A stretch of 32,000 nucleotides of DNA from Thermococcus kodakarensis KOD1 (GTDB taxonomy: Archaea > Methanobacteriota_B > Thermococci > Thermococcales > Thermococcaceae), in NCBI RefSeq assembly GCF_000009965.1, contig NC_006624.1, positions 60,001 through 92,000 on the forward strand, written 5' to 3'. A model generated the notes under the pieces. The model saw only the letters and a list, made by a program, of their open reading frames with translations, had not been told where the DNA came from and made no database searches. Shown here piece after piece: positions 2,171 to 26,333 of the stretch. Both the position numbers and the translations under genes were made by a program. Numbering within the stretch: position 1 is the stretch's first letter; each line of letters opens with the position of its first letter.

Positions 2171-2857
2171 TTTCTTTTTAGTGCCCCTTGGGCACTATAC
2201 GGTGAGAAAATCCTTTTGAATCAGGCCAATTGAAAGTAAAACCCCTCAAAAGTTAGCTCGTTAGAAACGCATACTCCTCTTCCGCCATCCGTTAAGGACG
2301 CTTGAACGACAGTGAAAGCGGCGCTGAAACTTTGCAAGCAAAGTTTCATCAAAGTTTGTGGTTCTTGTTTGACAGGTCTTTCGAGAGGATTTTCTTTTTG
2401 AATGCTGTCTTAGGTTGTGAATTCCACTTTTATCCGCTTGTTCTCTGTGAGTTTGCTTTTTAATTGACGCCCGTAGGGCGTCAAGGTGTTAGAAACTCCT
2501 TTTCAGCGGGCTGAAACTTAGAGGAATTCACTGATGTTTGGCTTGAGTATTTTGAAAATCCTTATAGTGGAGCAATTCTAAGAAGAACCACGAACTTTGA
2601 TCAAACTTCGCGAGGAAGCTTTTGTGAAAAGCTTACCAAAAGCTCGAATGTCTTCTTGAAGTTGGCTTGATGTAGCTAGATTCTCTGTGATAGATGAGTA
2701 GGGAAGTGCGGGTTTTCTTCTTTTTTAACGCCCTTCGGGCGTTATATTGTGAGTAAACCCTTGAGGATTGCCCAATTTATGGTGAGAATCACTGAAAAGC
2801 AGGACACTCAAAAAGGACATTCACTCTTTGATGAAACTTTGCTCTGCAAAGTTTCTA
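2171..2857. repeat. Three degenerate tandem units (~260-290 bp) of non-coding DNA, each with a T-run, a GC hairpin and a GAAACTTTGC-type palindrome
   Basis: Hairpins: 2180-2196 (agtgccc-ctt-gggcact), 2464-2484 (ttgacgccc-gta-gggcgtcaa), 2726-2744 (taacgccc-ttc-gggcgtta). Palindromes: 2325-2348 (11-bp arms), 2591-2610 (9/10), 2833-2855 (10-bp arms). A 26-bp inverted repeat matches 24/26 between 2341-2366 and 2583-2608. No credible ORF. Confidence 0.7.
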
Positions 2858-4226: not shown

Positions 4227-5993
4227 GTGGATGTGAGGTTTCGGAAAGCACTTGGGGTATTGGTAGTGGCTCTCTTTCTCGCGGCCCTGGCGGGCACGGC
4301 AAGCGCCGCAGAAACACATGTTCCTAAAATCGACTTGCCAAAGTGGGTCATCGTTCCAGAGGACTCAAGCTTCAGCGACGTGACGCTGTTCTGCGGGCTG
4401 GACGCGTACGATGCGAGCACGAACACGACACCTTGCTACTACAGCGGGACGCTGACGAATGCGACGATAGTGTTCAACACGACGACAGGATATCCGAAAC
4501 TGGTGACGGGCAAAATCGGGAATGCGTTTGAGTTCAAAACAGGAGCAGGAGTTTCCGGTTCAGCAACTCTTTCGTCGCAACAAATCACGATTGCATTGTG
4601 GTTCAAAGTCATAGACGACAGTGATCGCAACTACATCAGACTTTTTGATATAGGAGATTTGGCGATTGTATGGAGAAGTTCAGATAACAAAATATACGCA
4701 CAATGGATTTCTGAGAGTGGTGAAGGTAAGGCGTTTATTTCGCAGAGCTCGCTTGAACTTGGCAAGTGGTACTTTGCAACGTTTGTTTTGAGTTTTGATA
4801 CAGGAGAGTCATATATCTACATAGATGCAGATGTAGATGCTAGTACATCAATCACAGGGGGTTACACGCTGACGTCATCGACTTTCAAAATACATCCTGA
4901 TACGAATGGAGGGGATGTCATCGTTGACGAAGTGCGGGTTTACGACGGGAAAGCACTTTCACAGGACGAAGTCAACCTCCTCTACCTCGCCGGCCGCAAG
5001 AAGCTCTCCGAGCCCGCTTCATTCAGACAGATCTTCAGCCCGCTCATCGACCTCACTCGCGACCGTGCGACCTTCTACGCGGGGCTTGAGGTCAGCACGA
5101 CCGACCCGAGCGGCTACGTGCCCGTTCCTGAGAGCGCGGTCAACATGAGCATCACGAGCGCCGAGAAGCTCAAGAGCGACTACACCAACGCCGACTTTTA
5201 CTATCAGGGTCACTACTGGTACCGCGCCGACAAGATCCAGTTCAACTTGCCAATTCAGTTCGAGACCATCCGCACAAATGGCGACTTTGATGACGTCATA
5301 ATCCTTGACGAGGATCAAAAGACATACGTCTATGAGCGCGAGTTCAAAGTCACAAACCCAACCGGTGCAAAGCTGAACATCGTGTACTCCCTCGATCCAA
5401 CTGCGCTCGGTTTCTCCGTGCTCCAGTACCCACAGTTTGAACTTGACGGCGTCCGCATGGTTTCCTGGAGGCCTGATGAGAACTCAAGTCAGCTCTACCT
5501 CATCCGCACCGACACGCTTGAGCCCGGTGAGATCAGTACTCACTGGATCAGAAGTATCTGGACGCTCTCGAAAGAAGAGCTGAACTTCCCGGCGAAGCTC
5601 GAAGACTTTAGAAACATCCTCGACTGGCAGACTGCGCAGAAGATGGCCGAGAACGCCGTGAAAGGAAAAGCCGACACGTGGGTCAAGGTCATCAAGGTCT
5701 CAAGCAACGCTGACGTGAGCAACGTCACTATTTACGTGCCGCTCAAGGATGTCGAAGACACTAACGACGTCATTGAGGCCGTCGCCTTGACAGGCTCAAG
5801 AGAGACCCTGCAGGTCGAAGAGCTTGAGGACGGCACCATTGCGGTCAAGGTTCCAGCCGATGCATTTGTTTCTGGAGAAGCGGAAATCAAAGTCTTCTAC
5901 AACAAGGAAACCTCGTGGTGGAAGAGCATTCTGGACAGGATTATGGGCATGGTCAAGATGATCAAGAGCTTTTTCGGCTTTGGAGGTGGCTGA
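4227..5993 (+). CDS. Secreted LamG/concanavalin-A-like lectin-fold protein, 588 aa
   Basis: GTG start after ggaggg. Signal peptide MDVRFRKALGVLVVALFLAALAGTASA. LamG_3-like block: GKIGNAFEFK...ITIALWFKV...RLFDIGD...GKWYFATFV...IYIDA...DEVRVYDGKALSQDEVNLLY. Many N-x-S/T sequons. Confidence 0.85.
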   Translation: MDVRFRKALGVLVVALFLAALAGTASAAETHVPKIDLPKWVIVPEDSSFSDVTLFCGLDAYDASTNTTPCYYSGTLTNATIVFNTTTGYPKLVTGKIGNAFEFKTGAGVSGSATLSSQQITIALWFKVIDDSDRNYIRLFDIGDLAIVWRSSDNKIYAQWISESGEGKAFISQSSLELGKWYFATFVLSFDTGESYIYIDADVDASTSITGGYTLTSSTFKIHPDTNGGDVIVDEVRVYDGKALSQDEVNLLYLAGRKKLSEPASFRQIFSPLIDLTRDRATFYAGLEVSTTDPSGYVPVPESAVNMSITSAEKLKSDYTNADFYYQGHYWYRADKIQFNLPIQFETIRTNGDFDDVIILDEDQKTYVYEREFKVTNPTGAKLNIVYSLDPTALGFSVLQYPQFELDGVRMVSWRPDENSSQLYLIRTDTLEPGEISTHWIRSIWTLSKEELNFPAKLEDFRNILDWQTAQKMAENAVKGKADTWVKVIKVSSNADVSNVTIYVPLKDVEDTNDVIEAVALTGSRETLQVEELEDGTIAVKVPADAFVSGEAEIKVFYNKETSWWKSILDRIMGMVKMIKSFFGFGGG

Positions 5994-6045
5994 CTTGGTT
6001 GTTTGCGCCACCCGGAAAACTCACACGAATGGAGGTTGATAGAAA

Positions 6046-7383
6046 ATGGTTGGGTGGAAAAAGCCCCTCGGGCTGTTTGTAGCCCTTGTAGTTGTGTTTT
6101 CCGTCTTTGCCGTAGTGAGGGCAGCGACCATCACCGAGACGGAGTGGGGGAACGCAATAACCGATCCTGGCATTGAGCTGATCCCTGGCTATCCGGCGAC
6201 TATGAACGTCACAATACTAACCAGCTCTGGCGAACCCTTCGCGCTGAGCAGCTACACGAACGCCGACACGCTTGAGGTTACCGCAAAGTTCGTCGATGAA
6301 TATGGAAATGCTCTCGACATGAACGGAGACAGCGTTGCTGACGTCTACACCTTCACGAACACCTCAACGCCTGGCCTTTGGACCGCTACAATAAACGTCT
6401 CGAACGTCACTCCGGGTGCGTACACTCTCAAGATCGAGGCCCTTGCAAAGAACAGCACAAGTGGCGAAATAGTTGACAACGCAACCCTTGAGCTCTCCGT
6501 TTGGATCGCCGGTGGCCCGTATTGGGTTGCCGTTGCTGACATCAAGGACGGCGATACTGTCGAAATCGGAAGTCTTGAGTTTACCATCCGCGGGCTTTCC
6601 GACCTTGGAGCGATTCTAGACCTCGGAAACCTGAGCACCACCACGATCACGGACGATGACCGTGATGGCATCTTTACCTGGAAGAACGACGTCACGAGCG
6701 ATGGAGTTGACGACTGGATTGTCTTCGCAAAGAGCGACGACGACAGCGACAGATACGTCATGATGGTCTACTCCAGCGATGCAAACCTCCTCGACGACTT
6801 CAACCTTGAGGACAAGTTCGAGGTTAGGAGTGACGATGGAAGGGTCAAGTTCACGAACAAGGTTTTCAAAGAGTACAACAACTACAAGGCATACGTGGTT
6901 TGGGATGAGAGTCTTCTTGCAAAGCTCGGCATCAAGGCTGTTGATTACTACATCATACCCCTAAAGGGTAGAGAGCACTGGAAAGAGGGCTTCGGAAATG
7001 TTGACAGAACCGACGTCAAAGTCATAAAGAGAACAACATACCTTTGGGGCTTGTTTGGTAACGAAGAGGAGGTTTACAGCGGCAACATATTCAATAAGAA
7101 CGTGAACATCGACGACATAATAACAGTTTTCGGAAAGTGGGTCGGCAATTGGGCGAGATTTGCGTGGGGACAATGGGAGATCACAAAGGGGCTTGGTGAC
7201 ATCACAATTCCAAACAGCTACAGCTTAAGAGAAAGGTCACTAAATGAGCTTAGCGTTTCAAGCGAGGACTTTAGAGGATTCAATCCCATACTACAGCCAA
7301 GTGGGCGCGGCCTCTTCAAGCCTTCACTCGACTGGAAGTCCATCCTCGGCCTTGACGAGGACGAGGACTCTACAAGCTCTTGA
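6046..7383 (+). CDS. Secreted protein with DxDxDG-type Ca-binding-like loops, paralog A (445 aa)
   Basis: RBS ggaggt and signal peptide MVGWKKPLGLFVALVVVFSVFAVVRA. Loops DMNGDSVAD and DDDRDGIF. Colinear similarity to 17703..19046. Confidence 0.85.
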   Translation: MVGWKKPLGLFVALVVVFSVFAVVRAATITETEWGNAITDPGIELIPGYPATMNVTILTSSGEPFALSSYTNADTLEVTAKFVDEYGNALDMNGDSVADVYTFTNTSTPGLWTATINVSNVTPGAYTLKIEALAKNSTSGEIVDNATLELSVWIAGGPYWVAVADIKDGDTVEIGSLEFTIRGLSDLGAILDLGNLSTTTITDDDRDGIFTWKNDVTSDGVDDWIVFAKSDDDSDRYVMMVYSSDANLLDDFNLEDKFEVRSDDGRVKFTNKVFKEYNNYKAYVVWDESLLAKLGIKAVDYYIIPLKGREHWKEGFGNVDRTDVKVIKRTTYLWGLFGNEEEVYSGNIFNKNVNIDDIITVFGKWVGNWARFAWGQWEITKGLGDITIPNSYSLRERSLNELSVSSEDFRGFNPILQPSGRGLFKPSLDWKSILGLDEDEDSTSS

Positions 7384-7399
7384 AAGGGGGCCTGATTAA

Positions 7400-8974
7400 A
7401 TGAGGGCCCTTCCAGTGATTTCCATTATTTTCATTATGCTTCTTTCAACCCTCAGCGTTGCAGTAGCTGACAGCAGCTCCAACGAGACCATCAGCACGCC
7501 TGCTCTCGAAATGCCATCACTCACAATCTCAGACTATGTGAACAAGGCCCTTATCGCCTTCAAAGCCTGGCGCTTCGACTCAAAAGGCCTTATCAAGACA
7601 AACACAGGCATCTATGTCGACGAGAGGTTTTGGGACTGGCTTTCGGGTTCAATTCAGGAGAGTGCTAACCTCACCGATGCTGCCCTAAAGTGGGCTCAGG
7701 TCTTCCACCAGAAAGTCCAGAACGATGAGCCGATTCAGTGGATTTTCATCACCTGGACGAAGCCAAATGACCGGCTCAAGGAGGCACTTGAAGCCCTCGG
7801 TGCTGAGGTACTTTATGTTGATGACGACATCAATGCAATCTCACTCAAGGCAAGACCATCACTCATCAAAAACCTCGTTTACAGCCAGGCTTTTGACTTC
7901 GACTATAGGTTCTACATCCGCGAAGTTTGGCCCGACCTTTACGTCGAGACCGGCCCGACTATACTTGAGAACGAGACTACGTTCACGCCTGCCAACGTCA
8001 CGATAACTCCTGAACAGGTTTCCGGCGCAATCTGGAACATCAAGCTCGTTAAGGCTGACCTCGCCTGGAGTAAGGAAGGAATCACCGGCAAGGGCGTCAC
8101 GGTTGCGGTTCTTGATACCGGTGTGGACTGTGACCACGTGATGCTCCAGGGGGCTTGTGTGGGCTTTGAGAACTTTGTAACTGACGAGCCGGCAAAAGAT
8201 CTGAACGGTCATGGAACCCATGTAGCTGGCATTATCGCAGGAAGGCCTACTAAGGTTACTTGGGAAGGGAAAGAAGTTTATGTAAGCGGTGTTGCTCCCG
8301 AGGCCAACATTCTCGCGGTAAAGGTTCTCGGCCAGGACGGCGGCGGCACGATGACGCAGATCATCCAAGGCCTCGACTATGTTGTTGAGTGGAAAAAGAA
8401 GCACCCTGGCGAGCCGATAGTCATCTCAATGAGCTTGGGTTCCCCATTTGGAAGCCCAAGAGACCCAATGGTTCAGAAGGTCGAGCAGATCATCAGAGAG
8501 GAGCACATCCCGGTTGTCATCGCGGCCGGAAACGAGTTCGCGGTCATTGACAGTCCAGGCATAGCTACTGGAGCCATCACTGTGGCCGCGGTTGACAGGA
8601 ACATGAAGGTGGCATCTTTCTCAGGAAAGGGGCCGGGCCTGAACATCTACGACATCAAGCCCGACATCGCGGCTCCAGGAGTCAAGATACTAAGCGCCAA
8701 GGCCGGGACGAGAAACGAGTTCATAGCCATGAGTGGAACATCCATGGCAACTCCTCACGTGAGTGGCGTCGTGGCGCTGATTTTACAGAAGCACGGAGAC
8801 CTCACACCTGAGACGATCAAACTCATTCTCGAGAAGACGGCCTATCCGCTCGATGGCATTGACGCCCTGCCAACGTGGTCAGGAGCCGGAGTCGTTGATG
8901 CCTACGCCGCGGTCAAAGCCGAGCCAAGCGAAAGTGGAGGGCTCATCGACTTCCTCAGGAGGTTGCTCGGATGA
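7400..8974 (+). CDS. Subtilisin-like serine protease (S8 family) precursor with signal peptide and N-terminal pro-region
   Basis: Asp VAVLDTGVD, His NGHGTHVAGIIAG, oxyanion Asn AAGNE, Ser GTSMATPHVSGVVALI. N-terminal hydrophobic signal MRALPVISIIFIMLLSTLSVAVA. Confidence 0.92.
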   Translation: MRALPVISIIFIMLLSTLSVAVADSSSNETISTPALEMPSLTISDYVNKALIAFKAWRFDSKGLIKTNTGIYVDERFWDWLSGSIQESANLTDAALKWAQVFHQKVQNDEPIQWIFITWTKPNDRLKEALEALGAEVLYVDDDINAISLKARPSLIKNLVYSQAFDFDYRFYIREVWPDLYVETGPTILENETTFTPANVTITPEQVSGAIWNIKLVKADLAWSKEGITGKGVTVAVLDTGVDCDHVMLQGACVGFENFVTDEPAKDLNGHGTHVAGIIAGRPTKVTWEGKEVYVSGVAPEANILAVKVLGQDGGGTMTQIIQGLDYVVEWKKKHPGEPIVISMSLGSPFGSPRDPMVQKVEQIIREEHIPVVIAAGNEFAVIDSPGIATGAITVAAVDRNMKVASFSGKGPGLNIYDIKPDIAAPGVKILSAKAGTRNEFIAMSGTSMATPHVSGVVALILQKHGDLTPETIKLILEKTAYPLDGIDALPTWSGAGVVDAYAAVKAEPSESGGLIDFLRRLLG

Positions 8975-9114
8975 AGAAGTTTATCATCTTTCTCCTGGTC
9001 ATCCTCCTCTTTACAGCGTTCCTCGTAGGCTTCAACGAGTTCATCAAGAACGTCAGTCTTGCGATAGCGATCGCCCTTGTACTCCGCATCGTTGACGAGG
9101 TTGTGGAGGACTGA
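8971..9114 (+). CDS. 47-aa membrane peptide (below ORF-track cutoff)
   Basis: ATGA overlap with the protease stop. Encodes MKKFIIFLLVILLFTAFLVGFNEFIKNVSLAIAIALVLRIVDEVVED. The next gene starts 4 nt after its stop. Confidence 0.55.
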   Translation: MKKFIIFLLVILLFTAFLVGFNEFIKNVSLAIAIALVLRIVDEVVED

Positions 9115-9117
9115 ACT

Positions 9118-9375
9118 ATGTGGGGTTTGGAGGACAAACCGCTCCCAATTCGTTTAGGGATTGCGATCATCGCGGACGTCATTGACGCTCTCAACATAAT
9201 ACCAGGAGTGGGCGACCTCATCGAAACTCCATTCAACGCTTTCATCGCCTACGCCCTCACCGACAACCCAAAAGCCGCAGTGGTGGGTGGAGTTGACGGT
9301 ATCCTTCCAGCGCCAATAGACTGGTTCCCGAGCGCCACGGTGATGGTGATAGCCGACGAGCTCGGCTGGATCTGA
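9118..9375 (+). CDS. Small hydrophobic protein, 85 aa
   Basis: Tight spacing within the operon; IRLGIAIIADVIDALNIIPGVGDLIETPFNAFIAYAL. Confidence 0.6.
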   Translation: MWGLEDKPLPIRLGIAIIADVIDALNIIPGVGDLIETPFNAFIAYALTDNPKAAVVGGVDGILPAPIDWFPSATVMVIADELGWI

Positions 9376-9412
9376 GTTTTCGTTTTTCCTTCTTGCGAGA
9401 GAGGTGAGAAAA

Positions 9413-9796
9413 ATGGGACTGCTTGCGATCATATTCCTCGTATTCATCATCACGTTTGCACTTGCGACGATGTGGTATTCCAGCGGTGAGGCAGCGTTCT
9501 TCATCACGTTGGGAATAGTGGGCCTTGTCTTCTTTTGGGATCTCTCGTCCAATGGAGGCCAGTTCCTGGCAACACCACTCATTATGATCGGCGACTGGCT
9601 CGGCATCAGGCTCTGGACGGCACTCTTCCTCTTCCTGACGACCTTAGGTGGCTATGTCTTCGGAAATTGGGGAAAAGCCATCGTCTTCCTCGTGCTGGCA
9701 TTGATCATCCTCTATGCCCTCGGCCTCCTCGGGCCGATAGCGAGTGGCGACCTGAGCGCGATCAAGGATGCCGTCCAGGTCGGAGGTGGTAAGTGA
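9413..9796 (+). CDS. Polytopic membrane protein (~4 TM)
   Basis: ATG at 9413 after gagaggtga (the track start 9404 is GTG). Four long hydrophobic segments. Confidence 0.7.
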   Translation: MGLLAIIFLVFIITFALATMWYSSGEAAFFITLGIVGLVFFWDLSSNGGQFLATPLIMIGDWLGIRLWTALFLFLTTLGGYVFGNWGKAIVFLVLALIILYALGLLGPIASGDLSAIKDAVQVGGGK

Positions 9797-10512
9797 TGTA
9801 CAACCCTTCCCTCGCCGCCGCGACCTCACAGGCAGTCATGCTGAGCGTCTTCGTTGTAGTTGCAGCGTTCTTTGCATACTTCATCGCCTCAAGAAGGGCT
9901 GACATCTTTGGGGCCATCCTCCTCATGCTCCTCTCCATATTCCTCGCAAAGAACTACTATTATCTCGTCTACGCCGCCGGCGCGATGCTTGTCCTCGCTA
10001 CTGTCGCGTACATCACCAGCTATGATGAAGGGACAGTATCCGGGGCGCTGTTTTGGGCCGGAATAGGCCTCTTCACCTCACTCATGATATTCTACGTTAT
10101 GCCCGAGACAATCAAGATGGGCCAGGATCAGGCGTTTGTCTACATCGTGCTGATTCCAAGCTTCCTCATCGTGCTCATCAGCGACTGGAAGGGAAAGTTC
10201 AACTTCGAGTGGGAGAATGCGCTCGCCATCCTCATTCCAGTGGCCTTTGCCCTAGCATTCGTCAGCATGGTTGGGGTGTCACACATCATTTGGGGAGCGG
10301 CGATCATGCTTTTCGGTGTCATCCTCGAGTATCTTAACGCAGGCTTCGCCTCAACGGTTGCTTTTGTCTCCGGATTCATTATTTGGCTTGATGACGTCAT
10401 TGGGTACTCTCTGTATCCAAACTATGGCAATACTGCGGCCCTCCACCTCCTCGGTCCTGTAGGAGCTAGCCTCGTGCTCATCTACATTTATCTGCTCGTG
10501 TGGGGTGATTGA
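9793..10512 (+). CDS. Polytopic membrane protein, 239 aa (~7 TM)
   Basis: GTGATG overlap with the upstream stop. Almost entirely hydrophobic helices. Confidence 0.75.
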   Translation: MMYNPSLAAATSQAVMLSVFVVVAAFFAYFIASRRADIFGAILLMLLSIFLAKNYYYLVYAAGAMLVLATVAYITSYDEGTVSGALFWAGIGLFTSLMIFYVMPETIKMGQDQAFVYIVLIPSFLIVLISDWKGKFNFEWENALAILIPVAFALAFVSMVGVSHIIWGAAIMLFGVILEYLNAGFASTVAFVSGFIIWLDDVIGYSLYPNYGNTAALHLLGPVGASLVLIYIYLLVWGD

Positions 10513-11113
10513 AGTGAGGAAAAAAGTCGTTGCAGTTGCAGTTTTGTTTCTGGTTGTAATGGCCGGGCCGGTTGGAGCCTGGTCACTGAAAGACCTCCTC
10601 AAGAGTACTGCCGACAAGGCCCTCGGTCTCTTCAAGAGGGAAGTCATGCCGGTGGACGGCTATAAAGGGCTCAAGCCTGGCGAAGGCTTCTGGATCGAAG
10701 GCGAGCACTTCTGGAACCCGGACTACTACGTCCAGCTTAACGAGAGCAAAGTCTACTGGAGCTATTTAATCCCTACCGACGTGGATGTCAAGGTGAGGGT
10801 TTGGAAGGTCTATTTTGGGATATTTGCTTTTCCAGTCGAAAACGACCAGTATGCCGACATCTGGTGGAAGAAAGCACCAGTCGGCGACGGTTGGATCGGA
10901 GCGTTCTTCGTGCGGGGCTTCAGCTGGAGGCCAGGACGCGGCTGGAGAGATGCTGAGAAAGCCTATATTGCCTACAACCTGCCGAGCGCACAGGACATGA
11001 GCGTGGAAAATACCACAGCGCTCCAGAACACCACGATACAGCTCCCGATCAAAGTCGAGAACGTGACTTTTCGCCACCTGATTGGTGGCCTTTACTTGGT
11101 GAAAAGGGGGTGA
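10505..11113 (+). CDS. Secreted/anchored protein, ~200 aa (alternative GTG start at 10514)
   Basis: The N-terminus (M)RKKVVAVAVLFLVVMAGPVGAWS is signal-peptide-like. The Trp/Tyr-rich body carries N-x-T sequons. Confidence 0.7.
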   Translation: MIEVRKKVVAVAVLFLVVMAGPVGAWSLKDLLKSTADKALGLFKREVMPVDGYKGLKPGEGFWIEGEHFWNPDYYVQLNESKVYWSYLIPTDVDVKVRVWKVYFGIFAFPVENDQYADIWWKKAPVGDGWIGAFFVRGFSWRPGRGWRDAEKAYIAYNLPSAQDMSVENTTALQNTTIQLPIKVENVTFRHLIGGLYLVKRG

Positions 11114-11117
11114 TCTG

Positions 11118-11246
11118 ATGTTTGGACTAACTTTCCTGAACCTGAGCCCTGAGGCAGCTTTTGCACTCGGCATGATTGTTGGGCTGCTCCTGATGTGGGC
11201 AATTGAAGAAGACCTTGGAAACCACCGCAAGGAGGTAAGCGCATGA
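11118..11246 (+). CDS. 42-aa membrane peptide (below ORF-track cutoff)
   Basis: Encodes MFGLTFLNLSPEAAFALGMIVGLLLMWAIEEDLGNHRKEVSA. Starts 4 nt after the upstream stop, and its own stop overlaps the next ATG (ATGA). Confidence 0.5.
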   Translation: MFGLTFLNLSPEAAFALGMIVGLLLMWAIEEDLGNHRKEVSA

Positions 11247-11563
11247 GCCTGAAGAGTGGCGTCCTCCTTGCACTCGCTTACATTGTACCCTTCGCCCTAC
11301 TCCTACCGCCGGACTCGACAAACTCACCAGGAGCGATCTTTCTGTGGTTCCTCTACCCTATAACCTCAATGATGATCATGGTCGCCGTTGCCATCACTGC
11401 CTGGAAAGTCTTCAATGTTGACTTTGTGCCTTGGGGTCTGCTCCTCCTCTTTGGCTCGCCGATCCTGACGCTCCTCTTCAGCCCGATCTTCAGCCTGATG
11501 TGGGGCTTCTACATCGTGCCCACCGCTTTGGTATTCCTGGTCGGCCTGATGGAGGGTGATTGA
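11243..11563 (+). CDS. Membrane protein, 106 aa (~3 TM)
   Basis: ATGA coupling; hydrophobic throughout. Confidence 0.7.
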   Translation: MSLKSGVLLALAYIVPFALLLPPDSTNSPGAIFLWFLYPITSMMIMVAVAITAWKVFNVDFVPWGLLLLFGSPILTLLFSPIFSLMWGFYIVPTALVFLVGLMEGD

Positions 11564-11564
11564 G

Positions 11565-11705
11565 ATGGTCAGCAGGAAGGTGTACCTCAAGAGGAAGCGC
11601 GAGATCCTTCACCGAGTCCTCACGAATCTCCAGAAAGAGCTCGCGCGCGTGAACAGAGAACTGAAACAGCTTGAGAAGGGTGATAGTCATGGAAGCCGCG
11701 CCTGA
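11565..11705 (+). CDS. 46-aa basic coiled-coil peptide (below ORF-track cutoff)
   Basis: ATG sits 1 nt after the upstream stop. Encodes MVSRKVYLKRKREILHRVLTNLQKELARVNRELKQLEKGDSHGSRA. Confidence 0.4.
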   Translation: MVSRKVYLKRKREILHRVLTNLQKELARVNRELKQLEKGDSHGSRA

Positions 11706-12594
11706 AGTCCGCGAGGACATCCGCGCCGAGCTCGCGGCAAAGGTCGAAGGAAAAGACAGTCAGAAAAGCAGGATACTCAAGTTCACACTGCTCGGAATCG
11801 GAGCCGGAATAGCCGTCGGGCTGATCATGCTCGCCTTCCCGGGCTTTTACGACACGCTCGTCAAGATTCACCAAGCCCTGGCCAAGCCTCGTTATAGCTT
11901 CTATGTCCTCATTGGCTCGATACTCTTCGTCGAGTTCATGAGGGCCACGTGGGTCGAGAGTGCGAAGGCCCGCTCAAAGAGGCTCATACCGCTCACATCA
12001 CCAGAAACGGAAATTTGGGTCAAGGAAAAGCCGCTTCTTGGAATAAAGCTACCGTTCACATCAAAAGAAGTCAAAAGCCGCAGGATAAAGCCCCACATTG
12101 TCGAGACAGAGCTCGGGTGGAGAGTCTATCCGAACAAGTCACTTCTCTCACAGCAGTGGGATGGAACAGTCCACTTCATTCCGGGCGACGCAATATTCGG
12201 CTATGGGAACACGAGAATAATCGCAGCAAAGAAGCCGAGCAGGCCAACCTACTACGAGGTTGACAAAACCACTGGAGAGCAGATTCCAGTTTACGTTTGG
12301 GAACCGGTGAACATTGGAGACGAACTATACCTCCGCGCCCTCAAGGAGATAGAATACCTCAAGGCAGAGAACACCGCACTGAGGGCCTACGCCGAGAAAG
12401 GCTACGAATTAGCCAGGACGATCGCGGCCCTGCCAAGGGAATTCTTCGACAGCCTACGCGAGAAGGGCTACGAGGACGCGCTGAGAATCATGAAGGAAGT
12501 CCTCGGAAAGGGCTTCTTCGCAGAGATGGGCAAGATGAGGAAAGAAGAGCTGACCGCCATCATAGACGCACTCAAAAAGGAGGGAGAGCTTTGA
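11689..12594 (+). CDS. Membrane-anchored protein (2 N-terminal TM helices plus a ~200-aa soluble domain), unknown function
   Basis: ATG at 11689 (track start 11671 is TTG). TM segments ILKFTLLGIGAGIAVGLIMLAF and FYVLIGSILFVEF. C-terminal helical region. Confidence 0.75.
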   Translation: MEAAPEVREDIRAELAAKVEGKDSQKSRILKFTLLGIGAGIAVGLIMLAFPGFYDTLVKIHQALAKPRYSFYVLIGSILFVEFMRATWVESAKARSKRLIPLTSPETEIWVKEKPLLGIKLPFTSKEVKSRRIKPHIVETELGWRVYPNKSLLSQQWDGTVHFIPGDAIFGYGNTRIIAAKKPSRPTYYEVDKTTGEQIPVYVWEPVNIGDELYLRALKEIEYLKAENTALRAYAEKGYELARTIAALPREFFDSLREKGYEDALRIMKEVLGKGFFAEMGKMRKEELTAIIDALKKEGEL

Positions 12595-12608
12595 CCTCTC
12601 CCATTTTT

Positions 12609-12722
12609 GCCATCCAGAAAGGGGCATCGGGCCAAGTAGGGATTCCGAACGGTCCGGCCCCCTGGATGGCCCTATTCGGGCCAGAACACCGCGGAGGTGA
12701 GTTGGCGTATACCCCACGCCAA
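12609..12722 (+). other. Structured non-coding gap: 62-nt imperfect long hairpin plus a 7-bp hairpin
   Basis: gccatccag (12609-17) pairs with ctggatggc (12662-70). Inner helices are gggg/cccc with c25-g57 and cgggcc/ggtccg. The second hairpin is 12702-12722 (ttggcgt/acgccaa). This is the only sizeable gap (170 bp) inside the coupled gene block. Confidence 0.45.
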
Positions 12723-12764
12723 GTTGACGCATCCTGACTGAGGAAAAGAAAGGGGGTCCATACG

Positions 12765-13340
12765 GTGGTAGTGGGAAACTCATCAAAAGGGTTAGTGGAG
12801 AGTATAGATGTCATTATAGAGCGCTCTAAGAACGCCAAACTTACGCCAGAGAAGAAGTACATTGACATAGCTAAGACAGTCGCCAAGAAGGCCGAGGCAA
12901 CAGAAAAGGAAGCCAGGGGACTGCCGAACATCTACGTCACCAGGAAGCTCGAGCTCGCCTTCGAAACCATCGAGCGCCTGAAAGAAGCCCTCGAGTATGC
13001 ATTTAAAGGCATCTATTCTGGCGAGGACGTTGAAGAGAAAATCAACTCGATGAGGCGCGTTTTTGGAAGGAAAGCCCACCTGAGGACGAAGATCCTCATG
13101 ACACTACTAATCCATGGAGAGATGAAGTCCCAAGATATTGCAAAGATACTCAGAAAGGACGAATCAACAATCAGCAAGGCGATGAAGTTCCTTCTCCTCG
13201 AGGGCTACGTGGTGAGGGGTGAGAATGGACTAAAGCTCCGGCCAGGGATTGAAGACGCCTTGTGGGAGCTTTTCGACGACATCTTCGGCCAGCTCGAGGA
13301 GATACTTCTTGAGCAGACCCTGGAGGGAGCGGATGAATGA
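12765..13340 (+). CDS. Winged-helix (ArsR/MarR-like) DNA-binding protein, 191 aa
   Basis: GTG after aagggggt. The C-terminal RTKILMTLLIHGEMKSQDIAKILRKDESTISKAMKFLLLEGYVVRGENGLKL has a wHTH pattern. Confidence 0.7.
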   Translation: MVVGNSSKGLVESIDVIIERSKNAKLTPEKKYIDIAKTVAKKAEATEKEARGLPNIYVTRKLELAFETIERLKEALEYAFKGIYSGEDVEEKINSMRRVFGRKAHLRTKILMTLLIHGEMKSQDIAKILRKDESTISKAMKFLLLEGYVVRGENGLKLRPGIEDALWELFDDIFGQLEEILLEQTLEGADE

Positions 13341-14644
13341 GAGCGAACCTCGAGGAGATCTGGCCCCGGGACGTGCTGGAGGAAGACTTGCAGAGATATG
13401 AAGAAAAAACTTCATATTCAGAGAACCCGCTCCTGACCTTTGGCCTCACCAAAAGGGGCAAACTCGCCTATCCTCTGAGCGGCCCAAGCCACAGGCTCAT
13501 AATGGGGCAGACTGGAGCCGGAAAGACGACCCTCGCCCAAACACTGATGGAAATCGACTTCCTGAGGGGCCGCAAGGTCTTCGAAATAGAACCCGCGCTT
13601 GAGGCCAAATCAGAGCGAGCTTTCATGAACCTCCCCAACAACGACAGCAGGATGCGCCGAGTCCTGCTCGAAAAGTTCGGGATTGATATTGAGGACCTCA
13701 ATGAGTGGCCATTCAGGGCCGTTGTGTACAGCCCTGCGACGCCGAGATTCATCAACTTCCTCCAGAAGTACGAGAACCATCCAGGAATAGAGTTCTTCAA
13801 GCCGCTAACCTTCACCGAGGCCGACCTGATTGACATCATCGCGAGGACGCTCCCAACAGGCTCGATTGAGGGCCTGATCGTTGCCGATGCATATGACCAG
13901 TACGTCAACACAGTCAAGAAGCGGAAGAAGAGGAACATCGAGGAGTTCAAGAACTACGTCAAGGAGATCGGAGAAGGGACAAACGTCAACATAGACAACA
14001 CACTCATGAAGATCAACCGCTTCTACCATGTCCTGAAAGGGCTGGAAGTCGAGAACGGGGTTACTCTCAACGAGATGATGAAGAACCCAAAGGAGATCAG
14101 CGTCTTCACAACACACTTCATCGAGAGGCCTGAAGACCGATACATATGGACCTTTGCAATACTCGTCACGGTGTACTCAAACTGGATCGGCAACCTCAAG
14201 CGCGACTACCTCATGAGCTTCTTCGTCGCCGATGCAAACCTCCTCGCTCCAAGTTCACCAAGAGATATCATCGAGAAACTTTCCTACTTCCAGACTCTCA
14301 TGAGGCAGGAACTTCAGATCTACGTGAAGATCTCCCGTGGAAAGAATATGGCCTGGACGCTTGACACACAGAGACATGACGATCTAAGCCCGAGCATCGT
14401 CAGCGAGTGCAAGGAGTGGTTCGTCAAGAGGATGTATGCTCGGGAATTCGCCCAAAAACTTGGGGTTGAGCCGAGGCTTCTGAGGACGCTCTCAATAGAG
14501 AAGGCAATCTACGTCGGGCCGCTGACAAAGTACAAAGTGCTCCTACGGCCCCCAATTTCCCGCAAAGCCGCGGCTGGAGAGTACGCACCAATCCACTTCT
14601 TAGATGCTTATGAGGGGTGGGAGAATGAGGAAGCTAACTTTTAG
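13337..14644 (+). CDS. HerA/FtsK-superfamily P-loop ATPase, 435 aa
   Basis: Walker A IMGQTGAGKTT. Candidate Walker B LMSFFVADANLLAP. HerA-like C-terminal motif WTLDTQRHDDLSPSIVSEC. ATGA-coupled to the wHTH gene. Confidence 0.8.
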   Translation: MRANLEEIWPRDVLEEDLQRYEEKTSYSENPLLTFGLTKRGKLAYPLSGPSHRLIMGQTGAGKTTLAQTLMEIDFLRGRKVFEIEPALEAKSERAFMNLPNNDSRMRRVLLEKFGIDIEDLNEWPFRAVVYSPATPRFINFLQKYENHPGIEFFKPLTFTEADLIDIIARTLPTGSIEGLIVADAYDQYVNTVKKRKKRNIEEFKNYVKEIGEGTNVNIDNTLMKINRFYHVLKGLEVENGVTLNEMMKNPKEISVFTTHFIERPEDRYIWTFAILVTVYSNWIGNLKRDYLMSFFVADANLLAPSSPRDIIEKLSYFQTLMRQELQIYVKISRGKNMAWTLDTQRHDDLSPSIVSECKEWFVKRMYAREFAQKLGVEPRLLRTLSIEKAIYVGPLTKYKVLLRPPISRKAAAGEYAPIHFLDAYEGWENEEANF

Positions 14645-15761
14645 CCTGATATTCATATTATATATAATGGGAACTCTTGGATATGTAGCGGCGTATAGCC
14701 AAGCCATCAAACTCCATGTCGGCGATGAGGTATATATTGATGATATGCACATATTTATAGACAAGAGCAGAGTGGACAACCGCACCGCTGCGGTGATCGA
14801 GTACCAAAACTCGACGTTCCTCGTATTTGAAGGCCAGAACAAAACAATCGGAAACTACACCATCGAGGTCATCCCATTCAAGGACTACGTTTACCTCATG
14901 ATCTCCGCGCCCTTCAACTTCACGGCGAGGTTTCCAGAAGAAGAGAACCTGACTGCCAGCAACGTGACCGTAGCGAACCAAACCAACACCACCGCGCCGG
15001 CCCCGGCGAACCTGACGAACTCCACAACTTCTGAGCCGGCCAACATCACGGCCAATTACACCTGCTCAAGCGTCGAGGAGTGCCAGGCAATAATAGCTAA
15101 ACTCGAGAACGAGCTTGAGAAGGAGAAGCAAGAGAGAGCTGAGCTTGAGAAACAGATAGAATATCTCCGACAACAAGCCACATTTTGCAACATGACACAA
15201 GTAGAGAACGAGCAGCTGAAGAAGCAGCTCAGAATACTCGAGCAGGCCCTCGAAGAGAAGAACCAGCGCATACGTGAATTAGAGAGACAGATCGAGGAAC
15301 TGCAGGCGCAGCAGTGGAGTTGGGAAACCTTCCGCGAGAAGAGCGAGGAACAGTACCTCCTCTGGACGCCCTATCTCTTCCCTGTCGTTCTCGGTGGGCT
15401 GGTCGTCTATTACAGGCGCTACAAGACAACGAAGAAGTACGCCGAGGTGATGATCGACCAGAAGGCCAGGGAGCTCAAAGAGGAGCTCCTGAGCGAGTAC
15501 CTGAAGAAGGATCTCCTGAGGGCCAAGATCGAGACCATCGTGGACGACCCGAACCTGCTCGTGATTCTGCGCACGATAATCCCGCAGATCACAGGCTCCA
15601 CAGAAATCACCAAGGGCGACATCCTGAACATTGACATCGACCAGGTCGCCGAGCTCGCCAGGAAGAAGTTCCTCCTCAAGGAGAACCGTGTTGAATACCT
15701 CAAGAAGAAGCTCGCCGAGCTGAAGGAAGCTATAAAGGAGGAGGTTGGGGAGAATGTTTGA
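14625..15761 (+). CDS. Bitopic envelope protein: signal peptide, N-glycosylation-rich stalk, long coiled coil, TM helix, cytoplasmic tail
   Basis: ATG at 14625 after gaggggtgggag. MRKLTFSLIFILYIMGTLGYVAA; NLTASNVTVANQTNTTAPAPANLTNSTTSEPANITANYT; heptad-rich LENELEKEKQERAELEKQIEYLRQQ...LEEKNQRIRELERQIEELQAQQ; TM LFPVVLGGLVVYY. Confidence 0.75.
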   Translation: MRKLTFSLIFILYIMGTLGYVAAYSQAIKLHVGDEVYIDDMHIFIDKSRVDNRTAAVIEYQNSTFLVFEGQNKTIGNYTIEVIPFKDYVYLMISAPFNFTARFPEEENLTASNVTVANQTNTTAPAPANLTNSTTSEPANITANYTCSSVEECQAIIAKLENELEKEKQERAELEKQIEYLRQQATFCNMTQVENEQLKKQLRILEQALEEKNQRIRELERQIEELQAQQWSWETFREKSEEQYLLWTPYLFPVVLGGLVVYYRRYKTTKKYAEVMIDQKARELKEELLSEYLKKDLLRAKIETIVDDPNLLVILRTIIPQITGSTEITKGDILNIDIDQVAELARKKFLLKENRVEYLKKKLAELKEAIKEEVGENV

Positions 15762-16026
15762 ATGGCTCCTATACATCTCCCTCGCCCTTGGTTTTTGGCT
15801 CATCTATGAGATAGCAAAGGACAAAGTCCGCGGGCCCGGACGCTACTGGATCACCCTCAACGTCGAGGGAGACGCCGAGCGCGTTGAGTACCTCATCAAG
15901 CAACTCGCAAAGGACCAGAAGATCAAGATCCGCAGTTTCAAAATCAGCGCCGAAAAGCCTTCCACATCAAAGAGGAAAAAGTTTTTTGGACAAACCACTA
16001 AAAAAGAAGAGGTGGATTCAAAATGA
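15754..16026 (+). CDS. Small membrane protein with basic C-terminal tail, 90 aa
   Basis: ATG at 15754 after aggaggagg. MFEWLLYISLALGFWLIYEI followed by a Lys-rich tail. Confidence 0.6.
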   Translation: MFEWLLYISLALGFWLIYEIAKDKVRGPGRYWITLNVEGDAERVEYLIKQLAKDQKIKIRSFKISAEKPSTSKRKKFFGQTTKKEEVDSK

Positions 16027-17459
16027 AGCGGCTAGCCGCCTTTCTCCTTTTCCTCCTCGCTGGTACCATGGTGCCGGCCGGGATAGTGGGAGCTGAACAG
16101 CAACTCGTCACAACCTTTCAAGTAACAGCTGGCAAGACCTGGACAAAGGAAATCCCTGGCGCCATCGTGAACTGGACTGGCACATTTGACTACTCAAAAA
16201 GAGACGGGTGGGAAGCAGCTTTCTCGGTTTACTTTACAGAGACGGGCAACACTCATGGGGTCGCGGCAACCGAAAACGGCTTCGTTGACGCAGACGGGAA
16301 ATACATTTGGTTCCTTAAGAACGTCCAGACTGAAGACAATCCTGAAACCAGGGAGCTTGGCGTTCTTGAGAGTTGGCATGAGCTCGTCGTGAAGTTCATT
16401 GATCCCCTGAGTGGAAAAGTTGTCATAGACAACGACTACAATGGCGAAACATACACCCTCTATGTTGGAGATGAAATAGACATCTCGGGAGAGCTTGCCG
16501 ATGCCTGGCGTGAGAAAACTATTCTTGAGCTGAGGAGCATAGAAACCAGCCTCTTCGGCTCCAAGGCCGTCCTCATACTCCAACACATCACAGCCGTTAG
16601 CGGAACGGTGGAGATCTATCCATACCAAGAGCAGACTTCGGAGCCAAACTCACCAAACGAGAACCAGACCAACGAGACTACACCTCAAAAACCCCTCATC
16701 GACCCGGCGAAAGTTCCGGCGGTGATGATCGTCGTCGGTGAACACGCGGCGGGGGCCGACGTGGCGGCGGGTGCCAAGGTCGGCATAGCAGTCCAGAAGT
16801 GGATTGACATCATCAAGGAGAAAGGTGCCGAGTTTGCCATTCCAGGACTCGGCCACCTTGGAGGCCTCATCGCCAAGGCAGTAACTGCGCCAGTCCAGAA
16901 CCTCAACGCCGATGCTATGCTCGACAGTGAGGTCAAAGATCCTGACAGAATAGCACCCATCGTTTACACTGTCGGCGGGCCGGTTGCCAACGAGTACACC
17001 AAACTGATCCTCGAGAAGAACGCCGACAGACTACCAGTCAAATTCATCAAAGAGAACGGCAAATGGTACATCAAGGACAGAAAAGGTAACAAATGGGACA
17101 ATGGCTACGGCATCATCCTCATAATCCCCGCCTCCGAGAATCCAGCTGAGCTTCAGATAAGGCTCATGAACGGAAAAATCAAGATGGCCGACGTCGTCGT
17201 GGCGGGAACCGACAGAGTCGGCACATACGCCGCCTGCGAACTCCTCCAAGGCGAGTTCTTGAAGCCGCTCCTCGGAGAAAAACCAAAACCAGAACTCGAG
17301 TATTTCCTCCAGCTTCAGGGGAGAATGCTCCTTCTCTTCGGCCAGAACCCGCTCGAGGCCTTCGACGTGAACCTCGACCCAACCAACCCATTCAAGTTCC
17401 AGGTTACCGCCGTGATAGTGGACAAAGATGGAAGAATAGTCAAGGTCATAGTAGGCTGA
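16023..17459 (+). CDS. Secreted protein, 478 aa, with a C-terminal S-layer-like domain (tentative)
   Basis: Signal MKRLAAFLLFLLAGTMVPAGIVGA. Thr/Asn/Pro linker. Then AVMIVVGEHAAGADVAAGAKVGIA...IVYTVGGPVANEYT...ADVVVAGTDRVGTYAACELL, which recalls the VVG..A..D..AA / VGGP..N / AGtdR..T..AA pattern of archaeal S-layer protein domains (from memory). Confidence 0.75.
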   Translation: MKRLAAFLLFLLAGTMVPAGIVGAEQQLVTTFQVTAGKTWTKEIPGAIVNWTGTFDYSKRDGWEAAFSVYFTETGNTHGVAATENGFVDADGKYIWFLKNVQTEDNPETRELGVLESWHELVVKFIDPLSGKVVIDNDYNGETYTLYVGDEIDISGELADAWREKTILELRSIETSLFGSKAVLILQHITAVSGTVEIYPYQEQTSEPNSPNENQTNETTPQKPLIDPAKVPAVMIVVGEHAAGADVAAGAKVGIAVQKWIDIIKEKGAEFAIPGLGHLGGLIAKAVTAPVQNLNADAMLDSEVKDPDRIAPIVYTVGGPVANEYTKLILEKNADRLPVKFIKENGKWYIKDRKGNKWDNGYGIILIIPASENPAELQIRLMNGKIKMADVVVAGTDRVGTYAACELLQGEFLKPLLGEKPKPELEYFLQLQGRMLLLFGQNPLEAFDVNLDPTNPFKFQVTAVIVDKDGRIVKVIVG

Positions 17460-17607
17460 CTTTTCTTTTACATTTTCCTTTAGAGCTTTTCAAATCTAAA
17501 AACAAGACAATAGAAGTCCCCTTTTGAAACGTTGTAATTAACTTATCATTTGCATATTTCAGCCACAAGGGTTGTATGGCGATGAGGTTCCTACCCAAAA
17601 TGTTCGC

Positions 17608-17702
17608 ATTTGCTTATAACTCCCAACTAAGAGATTTTCTCGAATTTGCTTATTAACTTCTTTGCTTTTTTGATATAGGGAAAATCCCCCGGGGGAATCC
17701 CC
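17608..17702 (+). promoter_or_regulatory. AT-rich promoter region with direct repeat ATTTGCTTAT(T)AACT x2, a TATA-like box and a 12-bp GC palindrome abutting the start codon
   Basis: Repeats at 17608-17621 and 17644-17658. tgatatag at 17671-17678. tcccccggggga at 17685-17696, 6 nt before the ATG at 17703. Confidence 0.35.
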
Positions 17703-25414: not shown

Positions 25415-25430
25415 AAATGAGGTGAGAAAC

Positions 25431-25949: not shown

Positions 25950-26008
25950 TGCCGCATGCATATATATCATAATACTCTATATGACCTCGGTGATAAAGAG
26001 TGGGACAA

Positions 26009-26293: not shown

Positions 26294-26333
26294 GCCCGAA
26301 GTAGTGAAAGGGTGGGAAAATATAAAGCTTTCG

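Follow-up and report, generated by a model that had tools for sequence, protein, structure and literature searches.

The pAMT11/TKV1 family of plasmid-like elements was first described by Gonnet et al. in 2011 and adopted as an element family by Badel et al. in 2020, who placed eight of 47 Thermococcales elements in it by the markers ORF1-3 (PMC7253208). One of its members, TKV1, lies in the stretch analysed here, a window of 32,000 nucleotides (nt) of the Thermococcus kodakarensis KOD1 genome (NC_006624.1, positions 60,001 to 92,000), and this contribution concerns its long gene block TK0074-TK0090. TKV1 integrates in tRNA-Val(CAC), and the behaviour of its split integrase has been described (PMC7253208); the integrase is of the 'suicidal' split type (PMC7253208, PMC8155482), and TK0073-TK0105 is one of four non-essential 'proviral regions' that the genome of T. 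kodakarensis contains (PMC8155482). The published accounts of the family that we searched assign no function to this module and describe no leader RNA. The second group to be considered, the pT26-2 family, has a 12-gene conserved region without similarity outside the family and a VirB4/HerA-like ATPase, t26-14p, and the authors of that study proposed a novel DNA/protein transfer system for it (PMC6972569). Proven archaeal conjugation, by pNOB8-type plasmids and pT33-3, uses VirB4 and VirD4 homologues (PMC12857230). Integrating plasmids are widespread in hydrothermal-vent Euryarchaeota; how they spread is a question still to be answered, and no function has been assigned to their conserved membrane modules.

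The block at 4227-17459 constitutes the conserved module of membrane and surface genes in TKV1, an integrated plasmid-like element already known. (All positions are window coordinates, to which 60000 is added for genome coordinates, e.g. TK0074 64227-65993 and TK0087 73337-74644; PMC4247193 supplement.) The window encodes proteins identical to TK0076, TK0087, the MCM helicase BAD84285 and a flanking host protein, BAD84298, and TK0074, TK0075 and TK0076 are collinear with the three long marker genes of the family and 57%, 50% and 65% identical to pAMT11 ORF1-3. An initial annotation of the stretch had put the apparatus forward as a candidate undescribed one; the element is TKV1, and its family has been in print since 2011. 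The block forms an unbroken run of 17 annotated genes on the + strand, not the 'about 19' first counted; a mechanical open reading frame (ORF) at 12297-12737 was rejected as a gene because it overlaps TK0085 out of frame and extends into a non-coding leader. The tight junctions had been seen correctly: there are five 4-nt overlaps of the ATGA/GTGATG type (8971, 9793, 11243, 13337, 16023), two more measure 8 nt, and another three, which vary with the choice of start codon, are longer (17-41 nt). The reported gaps of 1-30 nt, however, overlook one of 170 nt (12595-12764), which occurs besides gaps of 3, 4, 16, 28 and 52 nt. Nor does the module end at 17459; it runs on to 19497 with TK0091 and a split membrane gene. 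Of the 17 products, about 13 are predicted to lie in the membrane or to be secreted, N-glycosylation sequons are enriched in the predicted secreted ones, and transcription proceeds in two units divided by the leader, an 'envelope' part TK0074-TK0085 and a 'motor' operon TK0086-TK0090. The core of the module consists of the following twelve genes, of which TK0077 to TK0080 are named by numbering (aa, amino acids; TM, transmembrane segment; wHTH, winged helix-turn-helix; dN and dS, nonsynonymous and synonymous substitution rates).

4227 to 5993, + strand: TK0074, secreted protein of 588 aa, in which residues 111-250 form a LamG/ConA-like domain and the C-terminus is an amphipathic tail; pAMT11-family marker ORF1.
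6046 to 7383, + strand: TK0075, secreted all-beta protein of 445 aa.
7400 to 8974, + strand: TK0076, secreted subtilisin-like S8 protease (PF00082, 3e-59).
8971 to 9114, + strand: TK0077, two-helix membrane hairpin of 47 aa; 16 loci, dN/dS 0.04-0.18.
9118 to 9375, + strand: TK0078, highly conserved amphipathic protein of 85 aa with 26 invariant alignment columns, without Pfam or PDB match.
9413 to 9796, + strand: TK0079, 127 aa, about 4 TM; 18 loci.
9796 to 10512, + strand: TK0080, 238 aa, about 7 TM; 19 loci.
10514 to 11113, + strand: TK0081, secreted aromatic-rich beta protein of 199 aa; 14 loci.
11689 to 12594, + strand: TK0085, 301 aa, a probable two-TM hairpin and, predicted to lie in the cytoplasm, a domain of about 210 aa that is partly beta-rich and partly helical; 21 loci.
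12765 to 13340, + strand: TK0086, 191 aa with a C-terminal wHTH of the ArsR/MarR/TrmB type; its stop overlaps the ATPase start (ATGA).
13337 to 14644, + strand: TK0087, soluble P-loop ATPase of 435 aa of the HerA/FtsK superfamily.
14625 to 15761, + strand: TK0088, made up of a signal peptide, a beta domain, a stalk rich in N-glycans, a coiled coil, a TM and about 110 aa of cytoplasmic tail.

Most of the components named in the initial annotation are borne out. Hydrophobicity scans give signal-like hydrophobic N-termini for TK0074, TK0075, TK0076, TK0081, TK0088 and TK0090, in keeping with the at least five signal-peptide proteins that had been claimed, and they support the membrane proteins of 4 and 7 TM as well as the small peptides (42-127 aa). 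Matches were found for the LamG-fold protein (4e-17), for the protease and for the S-layer-like protein (S_layer_C, 7e-9), the wHTH protein is supported by weak wHTH matches, and the proposed glycan-rich stalk of the coiled-coil protein agrees with 14 N-glycosylation sequons in TK0088. The protein with DxDxDG loops is TK0075, in which one clean loop (DDDRDG, residue 203) is present and is the only one to fit the strict pattern. There is a single ATPase of the HerA/FtsK superfamily, its gene overlaps that of the wHTH protein by ATGA, and the failure to recognise any capsid, portal, relaxase, VirB4/VirD4-family member or pilin was repeated in all our profile, sequence and structure searches. The observation made from the sequence is confirmed. 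Its interpretation is supported in part, since the module had already been described and several readings of its function compete.

Relatives of the module were gathered by exact-protein look-ups and one metagenome scan with TK0085 as the query, together with iterated hidden Markov model searches over all ORFs. The loci compared were pAMT11, the genomes of Pyrococcus kukulkanii, Thermococcus thioreducens and Archaeoglobus profundus, two metagenome-assembled genomes (MAGs) and 15 metagenome contigs. The twelve genes TK0074-TK0081 and TK0085-TK0088 keep their order in about 16-21 independent loci and are each present at about 14-21 of them; TK0085 is the most widely recovered of them in part because it was the query of the metagenome scan. 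Pairwise dN/dS lies between 0.04 and 0.38 with dS saturated, the ORFs of 42-47 aa included, and all module genes are under purifying selection. This conserved order and these ratios mark the module as one selected unit, beyond chance, and the conservation across loci upholds the view of a coherent envelope gene set around one HerA/FtsK-type ATPase and a wHTH protein. The block is collinear with that of pAMT11, an element of the same kind, at 28-70% amino-acid identity across the matched genes. A complete copy of the module was also found in A. profundus (L002, CP001857, 723354-744595), where an SSV-type integrase of its own lies next to it; the family is thus not confined to the Thermococcales, the only order in which the literature searched describes the pAMT11 family. 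The partner genes are interchangeable: TKV1 carries an MCM helicase and a split SSV-type integrase, whereas pAMT11 has a rolling-circle Rep and a resolvase and no integrase, and one MAG element has a resolvase, as would be expected of a module for propagation or transfer. The family is very narrow: when 1.84 billion representative proteins were searched exhaustively with HMMER, only about six full-length clusters were returned for TK0087, and TK0075, which forms 34 clusters at 90% identity, has no relatives outside the family. For the left half of the TKV1 module (4227-12594) the nearest relative is the element of T. thioreducens, at a dN of 0.05-0.17 in most genes; the wHTH and ATPase genes (12765-14644) are distant from it (dN 0.5-0.87) and nearest to P. 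kukulkanii and two metagenome loci, with a dN of 0.07-0.11 between the ATPase and those of L013, L015 and L009. These discordant nearest relatives of the two halves point to recombination between lineages near the leader.

TK0087 is the sole energy source in the module, and its relatives by fold and profile are dsDNA translocases and conjugative coupling or VirB4 ATPases. It has a Walker A motif (GQTGAGKT) and a conserved C-terminal RPPxS motif, and the hydrophobicity scan found no TM segment in it. A candidate Walker B motif, read by eye, is FFVADAN at residues ~293-303 (window 14207-14246), whose Asp-Ala is invariant in the TK0087 family; the t26-14p family has Asp-Glu at this site. The AlphaFold model (predicted local distance difference test score, pLDDT, 78.5) is matched best in Foldseek by HerA (4d2i, E 4e-7), then by TrwB and VirB4, with TM-scores of 0.4-0.5. 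Among 34 distant HMMER relatives, 22 belong to DUF87/HerA, seven to TrwB_AAD and four to AAA_10. TK0087 belongs to the HerA/FtsK superfamily and to none of its named families, because all Pfam and NCBIfam matches cover the P-loop only and stay below the cut-offs; the sequence-profile search of the PDB likewise gave a P-loop match only. As a side observation, glutamates are conserved in both ATPase families beyond the strand next after Walker A (EIEP in one family, IVxExK in the other).

The comparison with the pT26-2 family revealed a relation that lies in the neighbouring gene. Profiles of the pT26-2 core were built from pT26-2 and three related loci and compared all against all with the TKV1 families. 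The N-terminal extracellular beta-domain of TK0088 matched t26-13p with a probability of 98.6% (E 8e-16; hhalign 98.4%, E 5.2e-15), and 20 of 20 shuffled controls stayed below 1%. Both proteins have the same architecture of signal peptide, beta domain, coiled coil and TM. The adjoining ATPases align weakly, TK0087 with t26-14p at a probability of 80-86% (E about 1e-5, up to 334 columns), and both end in RPPxS. The homology of TK0088 and t26-13p is a new finding, and the TKV1 module and the pT26-2 core thus share a two-gene cassette of stalk and motor. The other five core genes of pT26-2 (t26-5p, 6p, 7p, 11p and 15p) have no counterpart in the TKV1 families (at most 33% probability), so that two of the seven genes by which the pT26-2 family is defined (t26-5p, 6p, 7p, 11p, 13p, 14p and 15p) were detected and the TKV1 module, judged by its genes, is not a member of that family. 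The two systems are nevertheless built alike: the pT26-2 core, like TKV1, is a membrane-protein-rich block of 12-17 genes on one strand with large secreted beta-sandwich proteins (PMC2926602, PMC6972569), each has a single HerA-like ATPase (about 435 aa) adjoining a protein with signal peptide, beta domain, coiled coil and TM, and variable-region genes held in common by the two were noted by Soler in 2010 (PMC2926602). They differ in that the ATPase and stalk genes follow each other in opposite order and that pT26-2, unlike TKV1, has no S8 protease, LamG protein or coupled wHTH gene. The t26-13 gene of pT26-2 itself lies at 9114-9878 of its locus in our set (L012).

The only large gap of the block separates the envelope part from the motor operon and contains an RNA leader.

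12617 to 12764, + strand: structured 5' leader of 148 nt of the TK0086-TK0087 transcript, within the gap 12595-12764.

It is regarded as the 5' leader of the wHTH-ATPase operon because a primary transcription start site (TSS), mapped by differential RNA sequencing at genome position 72617 (window 12617) and assigned to TK0086 (Jaeger 2014, PMC4247193 supplement), sits at the foot of its first stem. The 170-nt gap upstream of the wHTH gene is conserved in nine Thermococcales-type loci, and the leader combines a long stem, whose AGUAGGGAUUCCGAA loop is invariant, with a GGCCC-N5-GGGCC hairpin and GGAGGUGA, both likewise invariant, and with a 6-bp hairpin that covaries throughout. RNAalifold proposed 36 pairs, 17 of them with compensatory changes. 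In a trimmed structure of 27 pairs, 94.9% of the cells are paired compared with 78% in shuffles (none of 500 reached this value); 14 pairs show changes on both sides, and pairing falls to 28-62% when the 3' partners are shifted by one to three columns. At one position G.U is the most frequent pair, and G.U pairs are seen on the + strand alone. The leader is supported by covariation and not by stability, its single-sequence folding energy being unremarkable (z = -0.73). A hairpin acting at the DNA level (oriT- or pac-like) is less likely because the G.U pairs are confined to the + strand and transcription starts at the 5' end. A leader peptide in the gap was rejected; mini-ORFs are not conserved across the loci, and in one locus a stop follows after two codons. 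The covariance model finds the leader in its nine training loci only and not in pAMT11, pT26-2 or the Archaeoglobus-type loci; the Archaeoglobus-type gaps have an analogous but unalignable layout, no structured leader was found before the pT26-2 ATPase gene, and the pT26-2 gaps have no conserved structure. Without a match in Rfam and with its transcription start already mapped, the 148-nt leader represents a new candidate cis-regulatory RNA.

The remaining proteins of the module are membrane and surface proteins, several of them restricted to Thermococcales-type loci or, in the case of TK0090, accessory (TK0089 and TK0090 are named by numbering).

11118 to 11705, + strand: three small genes, Thermococcales-type loci only, namely the next three.
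11118 to 11246, + strand: peptide of 42 aa with 1 TM.
11243 to 11563, + strand: protein of 106 aa with about 4 TM.
11565 to 11705, + strand: TK0084, basic helical protein of 46 aa.
15754 to 16026, + strand: TK0089, 90 aa with a short hydrophobic N-terminus and a basic C-terminus; Thermococcales-type loci only.
16023 to 17459, + strand: TK0090, secreted protein of 478 aa with an S-layer-type C-terminal domain; accessory gene, five loci, Thermococcales-type only.
17703 to 19046, + strand: TK0091, paralogue of TK0075 (38% identity), beyond the end first given to the module; Thermococcales-type loci only.
19043 to 19497, + strand: TK0092 together with the ORF after it, the two frames between which one membrane protein is divided.

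The counterpart of this pair is a single ORF of 146 aa in two loci (L013, L018), and the split gene of KOD1 is probably a frameshift pseudogene. TK0080, the largest polytopic protein of the core, is a candidate for a membrane conduit; its family profile found no PDB sequence at E <= 10 and nothing in Pfam. For TK0078, TK0079 and TK0083 the family profiles gave no significant match among PDB sequences, TK0085 matched nothing in PDB or Pfam, and the PDB profile searches with these five proteins and TK0075 yielded nothing usable. TK0075 was modelled with AlphaFold (AF2, pLDDT 85.8) as an all-beta protein with an N-terminal Ig/macroglobulin-like domain followed by beta domains without structural match. 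In Foldseek searches of the PDB and BFVD the model was matched in its Ig-like N-terminal domain only, and because the TMq of the whole protein does not exceed 0.23 (PDB <= 0.19), TK0075 as modelled is unlike any capsid, spike, fusion or pilus protein, solved or predicted, in these two collections. The protease TK0076 has an intact D-H-S triad (DTG, HGTH and GTSMA motifs at residues 239, 271 and 446). Its best NCBIfam match is the mycosin of the type VII secretion system (T7SS; TIGR03921) with 154 bits against a cut-off of 279, a likeness that is an analogy to another secretion machine with an FtsK-like ATPase and not family membership. The S-layer domain of TK0090 was recognised by PF05124 and, above its cut-off of 25 bits, by TIGR01564 (29.2 bits). 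Among the module genes whose counts were compared in the published transcript data, TK0075 and TK0090 have the top counts, and TK0075 the highest (PMC4247193).

Several secreted proteins end in similar short tails, SWWKSILDRIMG in TK0074, LDWKSILGL in TK0075, VDWYGLLGG in TK0091 and GGLIDFLRRLLG in the protease (5900-5993, 7290-7383, 18960-19046 and 8900-8974, respectively), which may be a docking, sorting or cleavage signal. At 17544-17702, in the AT-rich gap of 243 nt upstream of TK0091, (TCGxA)TTTGCTTAT occurs three to four times and the palindromes GGGAAAATCCCC and GGGGGAATCCCC stand side by side; an antisense TSS at genome position 77628 lies in the same gap. The TTTGCTTAT repeats (17544-17670) were rejected as a repeated clt-like motif, being local and absent from the related loci.

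Against this background the module was compared with the known machineries. Neither Pfam, PHROGs, NCBIfam, PADLOC, PDB profiles, tblastn against phages and IMG/VR nor the two AlphaFold/Foldseek tests revealed a capsid, portal, relaxase, pilin, VirB6 protein or defence system. PHROGs gave nothing for the module proteins except for the protease, and none above noise; tblastn of TK0074, TK0075 and TK0087 against 50,697 phage and archaeal-virus records found nothing, and IMG/VR held no related locus. Major capsid, spike or portal proteins (double jelly-roll PRD1-like, HK97, spindle SSV1-VP1-like or pleolipovirus) were not found, in searches that small hydrophobic VP1-type capsid proteins would escape. 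The type IV secretion system (T4SS), archaeal conjugation and the Ced and Ted systems follow a similar logic, with a HerA/FtsK-superfamily ATPase, polytopic proteins, two-helix peptides and surface components. The TKV1 ATPase, however, stands outside the VirB4 and VirD4 families, with Pfam AAA_10, TrwB and T2SSE far below their cut-offs (AAA_10 at E 0.017, 14.6 bits versus 27.5) and with HerA ranking higher: the Foldseek match to VirB4 4ag5 (E 3e-5, TM-score 0.40-0.45) lies below that to HerA. The likeness to the VirD4/TrwB coupling proteins stays at the level of the superfamily (TM-score ~0.40), TK0087 being devoid of TM segments and of a Pfam TrwB match above cut-off (TIGR03743 TraD, 15 bits versus 366). 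TKV1 has one ATPase compared with the VirB4 and VirD4 pair of pNOB8-type plasmids and pT33-3, and no VirB6/CedA-like or VirB2/CedA1/TedC-like match was obtained with the PDB-sequence profiles of TK0078, TK0079, TK0080 and TK0083. No relaxase domain was found by Pfam or NCBIfam in the module or in the other TKV1 proteins scanned, which is weakly diagnostic because the known archaeal conjugative plasmids lack one as well (PMC12857230).

An analogy in logic is offered by the single-motor systems. FtsK-gamma with KOPS and Streptomyces TraB with clt combine a wHTH with a motor, and a single motor moves dsDNA across a membrane. FtsK/SpoIIIE and TraB have a ring ATPase of the same superfamily and winged-helix DNA recognition; there the wHTH is fused to the motor, whereas it is a separate protein in TKV1, whose ATPase is devoid of TM segments. 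The FtsK_SpoIIIE match of TK0087 (PF01580) reaches 15.7 bits against a cut-off of 24 over 25 residues, and no repeated clt- or KOPS-like motif was identified. Of the ESX (type VII) components, the mycosin matched the protease below cut-off; EccC appeared only at E = 2 in the PDB profile search, and no other Ecc component was found. No partner protein of HerA-NurA or HerA-based defence complexes is present, and the DUF87 match of TK0087 (22 bits versus 23.2, 2e-4) covers 21 residues. Like the pleolipovirus and pR1SE modules, that of TKV1 is capsid-less, codes for secreted glycoproteins, small membrane proteins and a single NTPase, and is borne by an integrating or plasmid-like element; no sequence or structural match was obtained in the viral sets searched, and the secreted proteins of TKV1 lack C-terminal membrane anchors.

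The reading that we tentatively favour, without holding it to be probable, is that the module builds an envelope apparatus other than a T4SS that moves the dsDNA of the element across membrane and S-layer in a conjugation-like manner, by export or import. The idea of a transfer apparatus is not novel in itself, as the same hypothesis has been published for the sister family pT26-2 (PMC6972569). We infer each functional step from the composition, predicted topology, order, conservation and selection of the module, from its two transcription units and leader, and from the two-part homology with pT26-2. The wHTH protein TK0086 would pick the DNA and load the ring ATPase TK0087, encoded by the overlapping gene, and the motor could then dock on cytoplasmic parts of two proteins, the domain of TK0085 and the tail of TK0088. 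A membrane conduit would be provided by the polytopic proteins TK0079, TK0080 and TK0083, and the glycosylated coiled-coil stalk of TK0088 might span from the membrane to the S-layer. We assume that TK0074 (LamG), TK0075/TK0091, TK0081 and TK0090 (S-layer-like) form the external, cell-contacting part. The S8 protease TK0076 may either mature the secreted proteins or locally open the proteinaceous S-layer, a role that would be comparable to that of the cell-wall hydrolases in bacterial systems. A DNA-translocating apparatus is favoured because the wHTH gene is translationally coupled to a HerA/FtsK-type motor, because the module associates with freely exchanged replication and integration genes, because of the homology with the stalk-motor cassette of pT26-2, and because no virion hallmark was detected (PHROGs, phage tblastn, IMG/VR, BFVD). 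Several points weigh against it. A second ATPase, a relaxase, a pilin and a VirB6-like protein were not detected in the module, the putative Walker B of TK0087 reads Asp-Ala and not the Asp-Glu of its canonical relatives, t26-14p included, and transfer is, for every member, a prediction. Roles in repair and defence are also played by ATPases of the HerA type. TKV1 is stably integrated through an integrase of the 'suicidal' split type, so that the module could serve the host rather than mobility. Finally, small hydrophobic capsid proteins like those of spindle-shaped or pleomorphic viruses would have escaped the searches used.

This last point leads to an alternative that we consider unlikely, although the component logic (spike-like secreted proteins, small membrane proteins, one NTPase and an SSV-type integrase) fits it just as well as DNA transfer: the module may form a capsid-less pleomorphic virion or a plasmid-directed infectious vesicle similar to pleolipoviruses or Halorubrum pR1SE, with the secreted glycoproteins as spikes, the small TM proteins as internal membrane proteins, and the ATPase and wHTH protein loading DNA into the bud. 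TKV1 was first annotated as 'virus-like' (PMC8155482), Thermococcales shed vesicles with DNA (literature cited in PMC6972569), a Thermococcales virome survey of 2026 considers that some plasmid-labelled elements may be viruses with unrecognised capsids (PMC12934983), and the top transcript counts of TK0075 and TK0090 among the module genes listed would be expected of structural proteins. Such a particle is at odds with the absence of any PHROG, phage-genome, IMG/VR or BFVD match, with a TK0075 model unlike the solved virion, spike and fusion proteins (TMq <= 0.19 in the PDB), and with secreted proteins that lack the C-terminal TM anchor typical of pleolipovirus spikes; moreover, no particles with TKV2 DNA were detected after excision of TKV2 (PMC8155482), and PAV1 and TPV1 are the only known virion makers of the order (PMC12934983).

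Somewhat less likely again is a surface structure or protein-secretion device, i.e. an adhesive fibre, an S-layer patch, a cell-cell junction or a system that secretes its own components, in which the ATPase would power assembly or secretion and the host would gain in adhesion or fitness. Most of the coding capacity is indeed devoted to secreted or glycosylated beta-rich proteins, the protease and the S-layer-type protein, and in combining an S8 protease, whose best NCBIfam match is a mycosin, with a polytopic membrane protein and an FtsK-like ATPase the module is reminiscent of type VII secretion. Yet the mycosin match falls far short of its cut-off, equivalents of EccB, EccC, EccD and EccE were not found, the wHTH coupled to the motor points to DNA, and the module is confined to mobile elements, is not fixed in host lineages and lies in a region listed as non-essential (PMC8155482). 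That the ATPase belongs to a HerA-based system of defence, exclusion or DNA repair carried by the element is very improbable. Its top structural matches do include HerA of anti-phage complexes and of HerA-NurA, and PADLOC returned mad8 (2e-5) and HerA (6e-5); these matches are all weak and partial, and a defence system was rejected after that scan. No NurA, SIR2, DUF4297 or other effector partner is present, TK0087 lacks the HAS-barrel of HerA and matches DUF87 below cut-off, and twelve conserved envelope genes would have no place in such a system.

If the module is a DNA-transfer machine, as we tentatively propose, it would represent a conjugation mechanism unrelated to the VirB4/VirD4 systems. 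A wider proposal, which we regard as doubtful, is that the TKV1/pAMT11 module and the pT26-2 core are two divergent versions of one T4SS-independent archaeal DNA-transfer machine, built around the cassette of a HerA-like ring ATPase and a stalk protein, which in the TKV1 lineage would be completed by an S-layer-breaching protease and controlled by a dedicated leader RNA. It would then amount to a categorically new conjugation system across Thermococcales, Methanococcales and Archaeoglobales. T. kodakarensis is naturally competent and amenable to markerless genetics, and TKV1 is reported to be non-essential, so that every proposed role is testable; the homology of TK0088 with t26-13p and of TK0087 with t26-14p suggests that one experiment could inform on two plasmid families.

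The borders of TKV1 agree with integration into tRNA-Val(CAC) by a split SSV-type integrase, as known for TKV1: two identical 48-nt repeats, the 3' part of the tRNA gene, enclose an element of 23.4 kb that contains the integrase and the MCM helicase.

2858 to 2905, no strand: attL, 48-nt direct repeat that bounds TKV1 on the left, 100% identical to 26216-26263 and equal to the 3' part of tRNA-Val(CAC).
2828 to 3724, + strand: TK0073, C-terminal part of the split SSV-type integrase (PF16795, 1.6e-61).
20433 to 23177: MCM helicase, between the module and attR.
About 26000 to 26422: N-terminal part of the integrase, between the module and the right boundary.
26216 to 26293, - strand: tRNA-Val(CAC), whose 3' 48 nt (26216-26263) are attR, the right boundary of TKV1.

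Two tandem 15-nt palindromes at 20210-20242, CGGTAAAAATTACCG and CGGTAAAATATACCG, about 200 nt upstream of the MCM gene, are candidates for an operator or origin element. The variable part of TKV1 encodes a Holliday-junction-resolvase-like protein (24438-25019; phrog_27407, 1e-33) and a second, short ORF resembling tyrosine recombinases (25422-25949; weak matches to PF00589 and PF16795). Just outside the element, the C/D-box small RNA sR46 (Rfam RF01130, 73 bits) lies at 27729-27781 on the + strand, within a mechanical ORF at 27664-28266.

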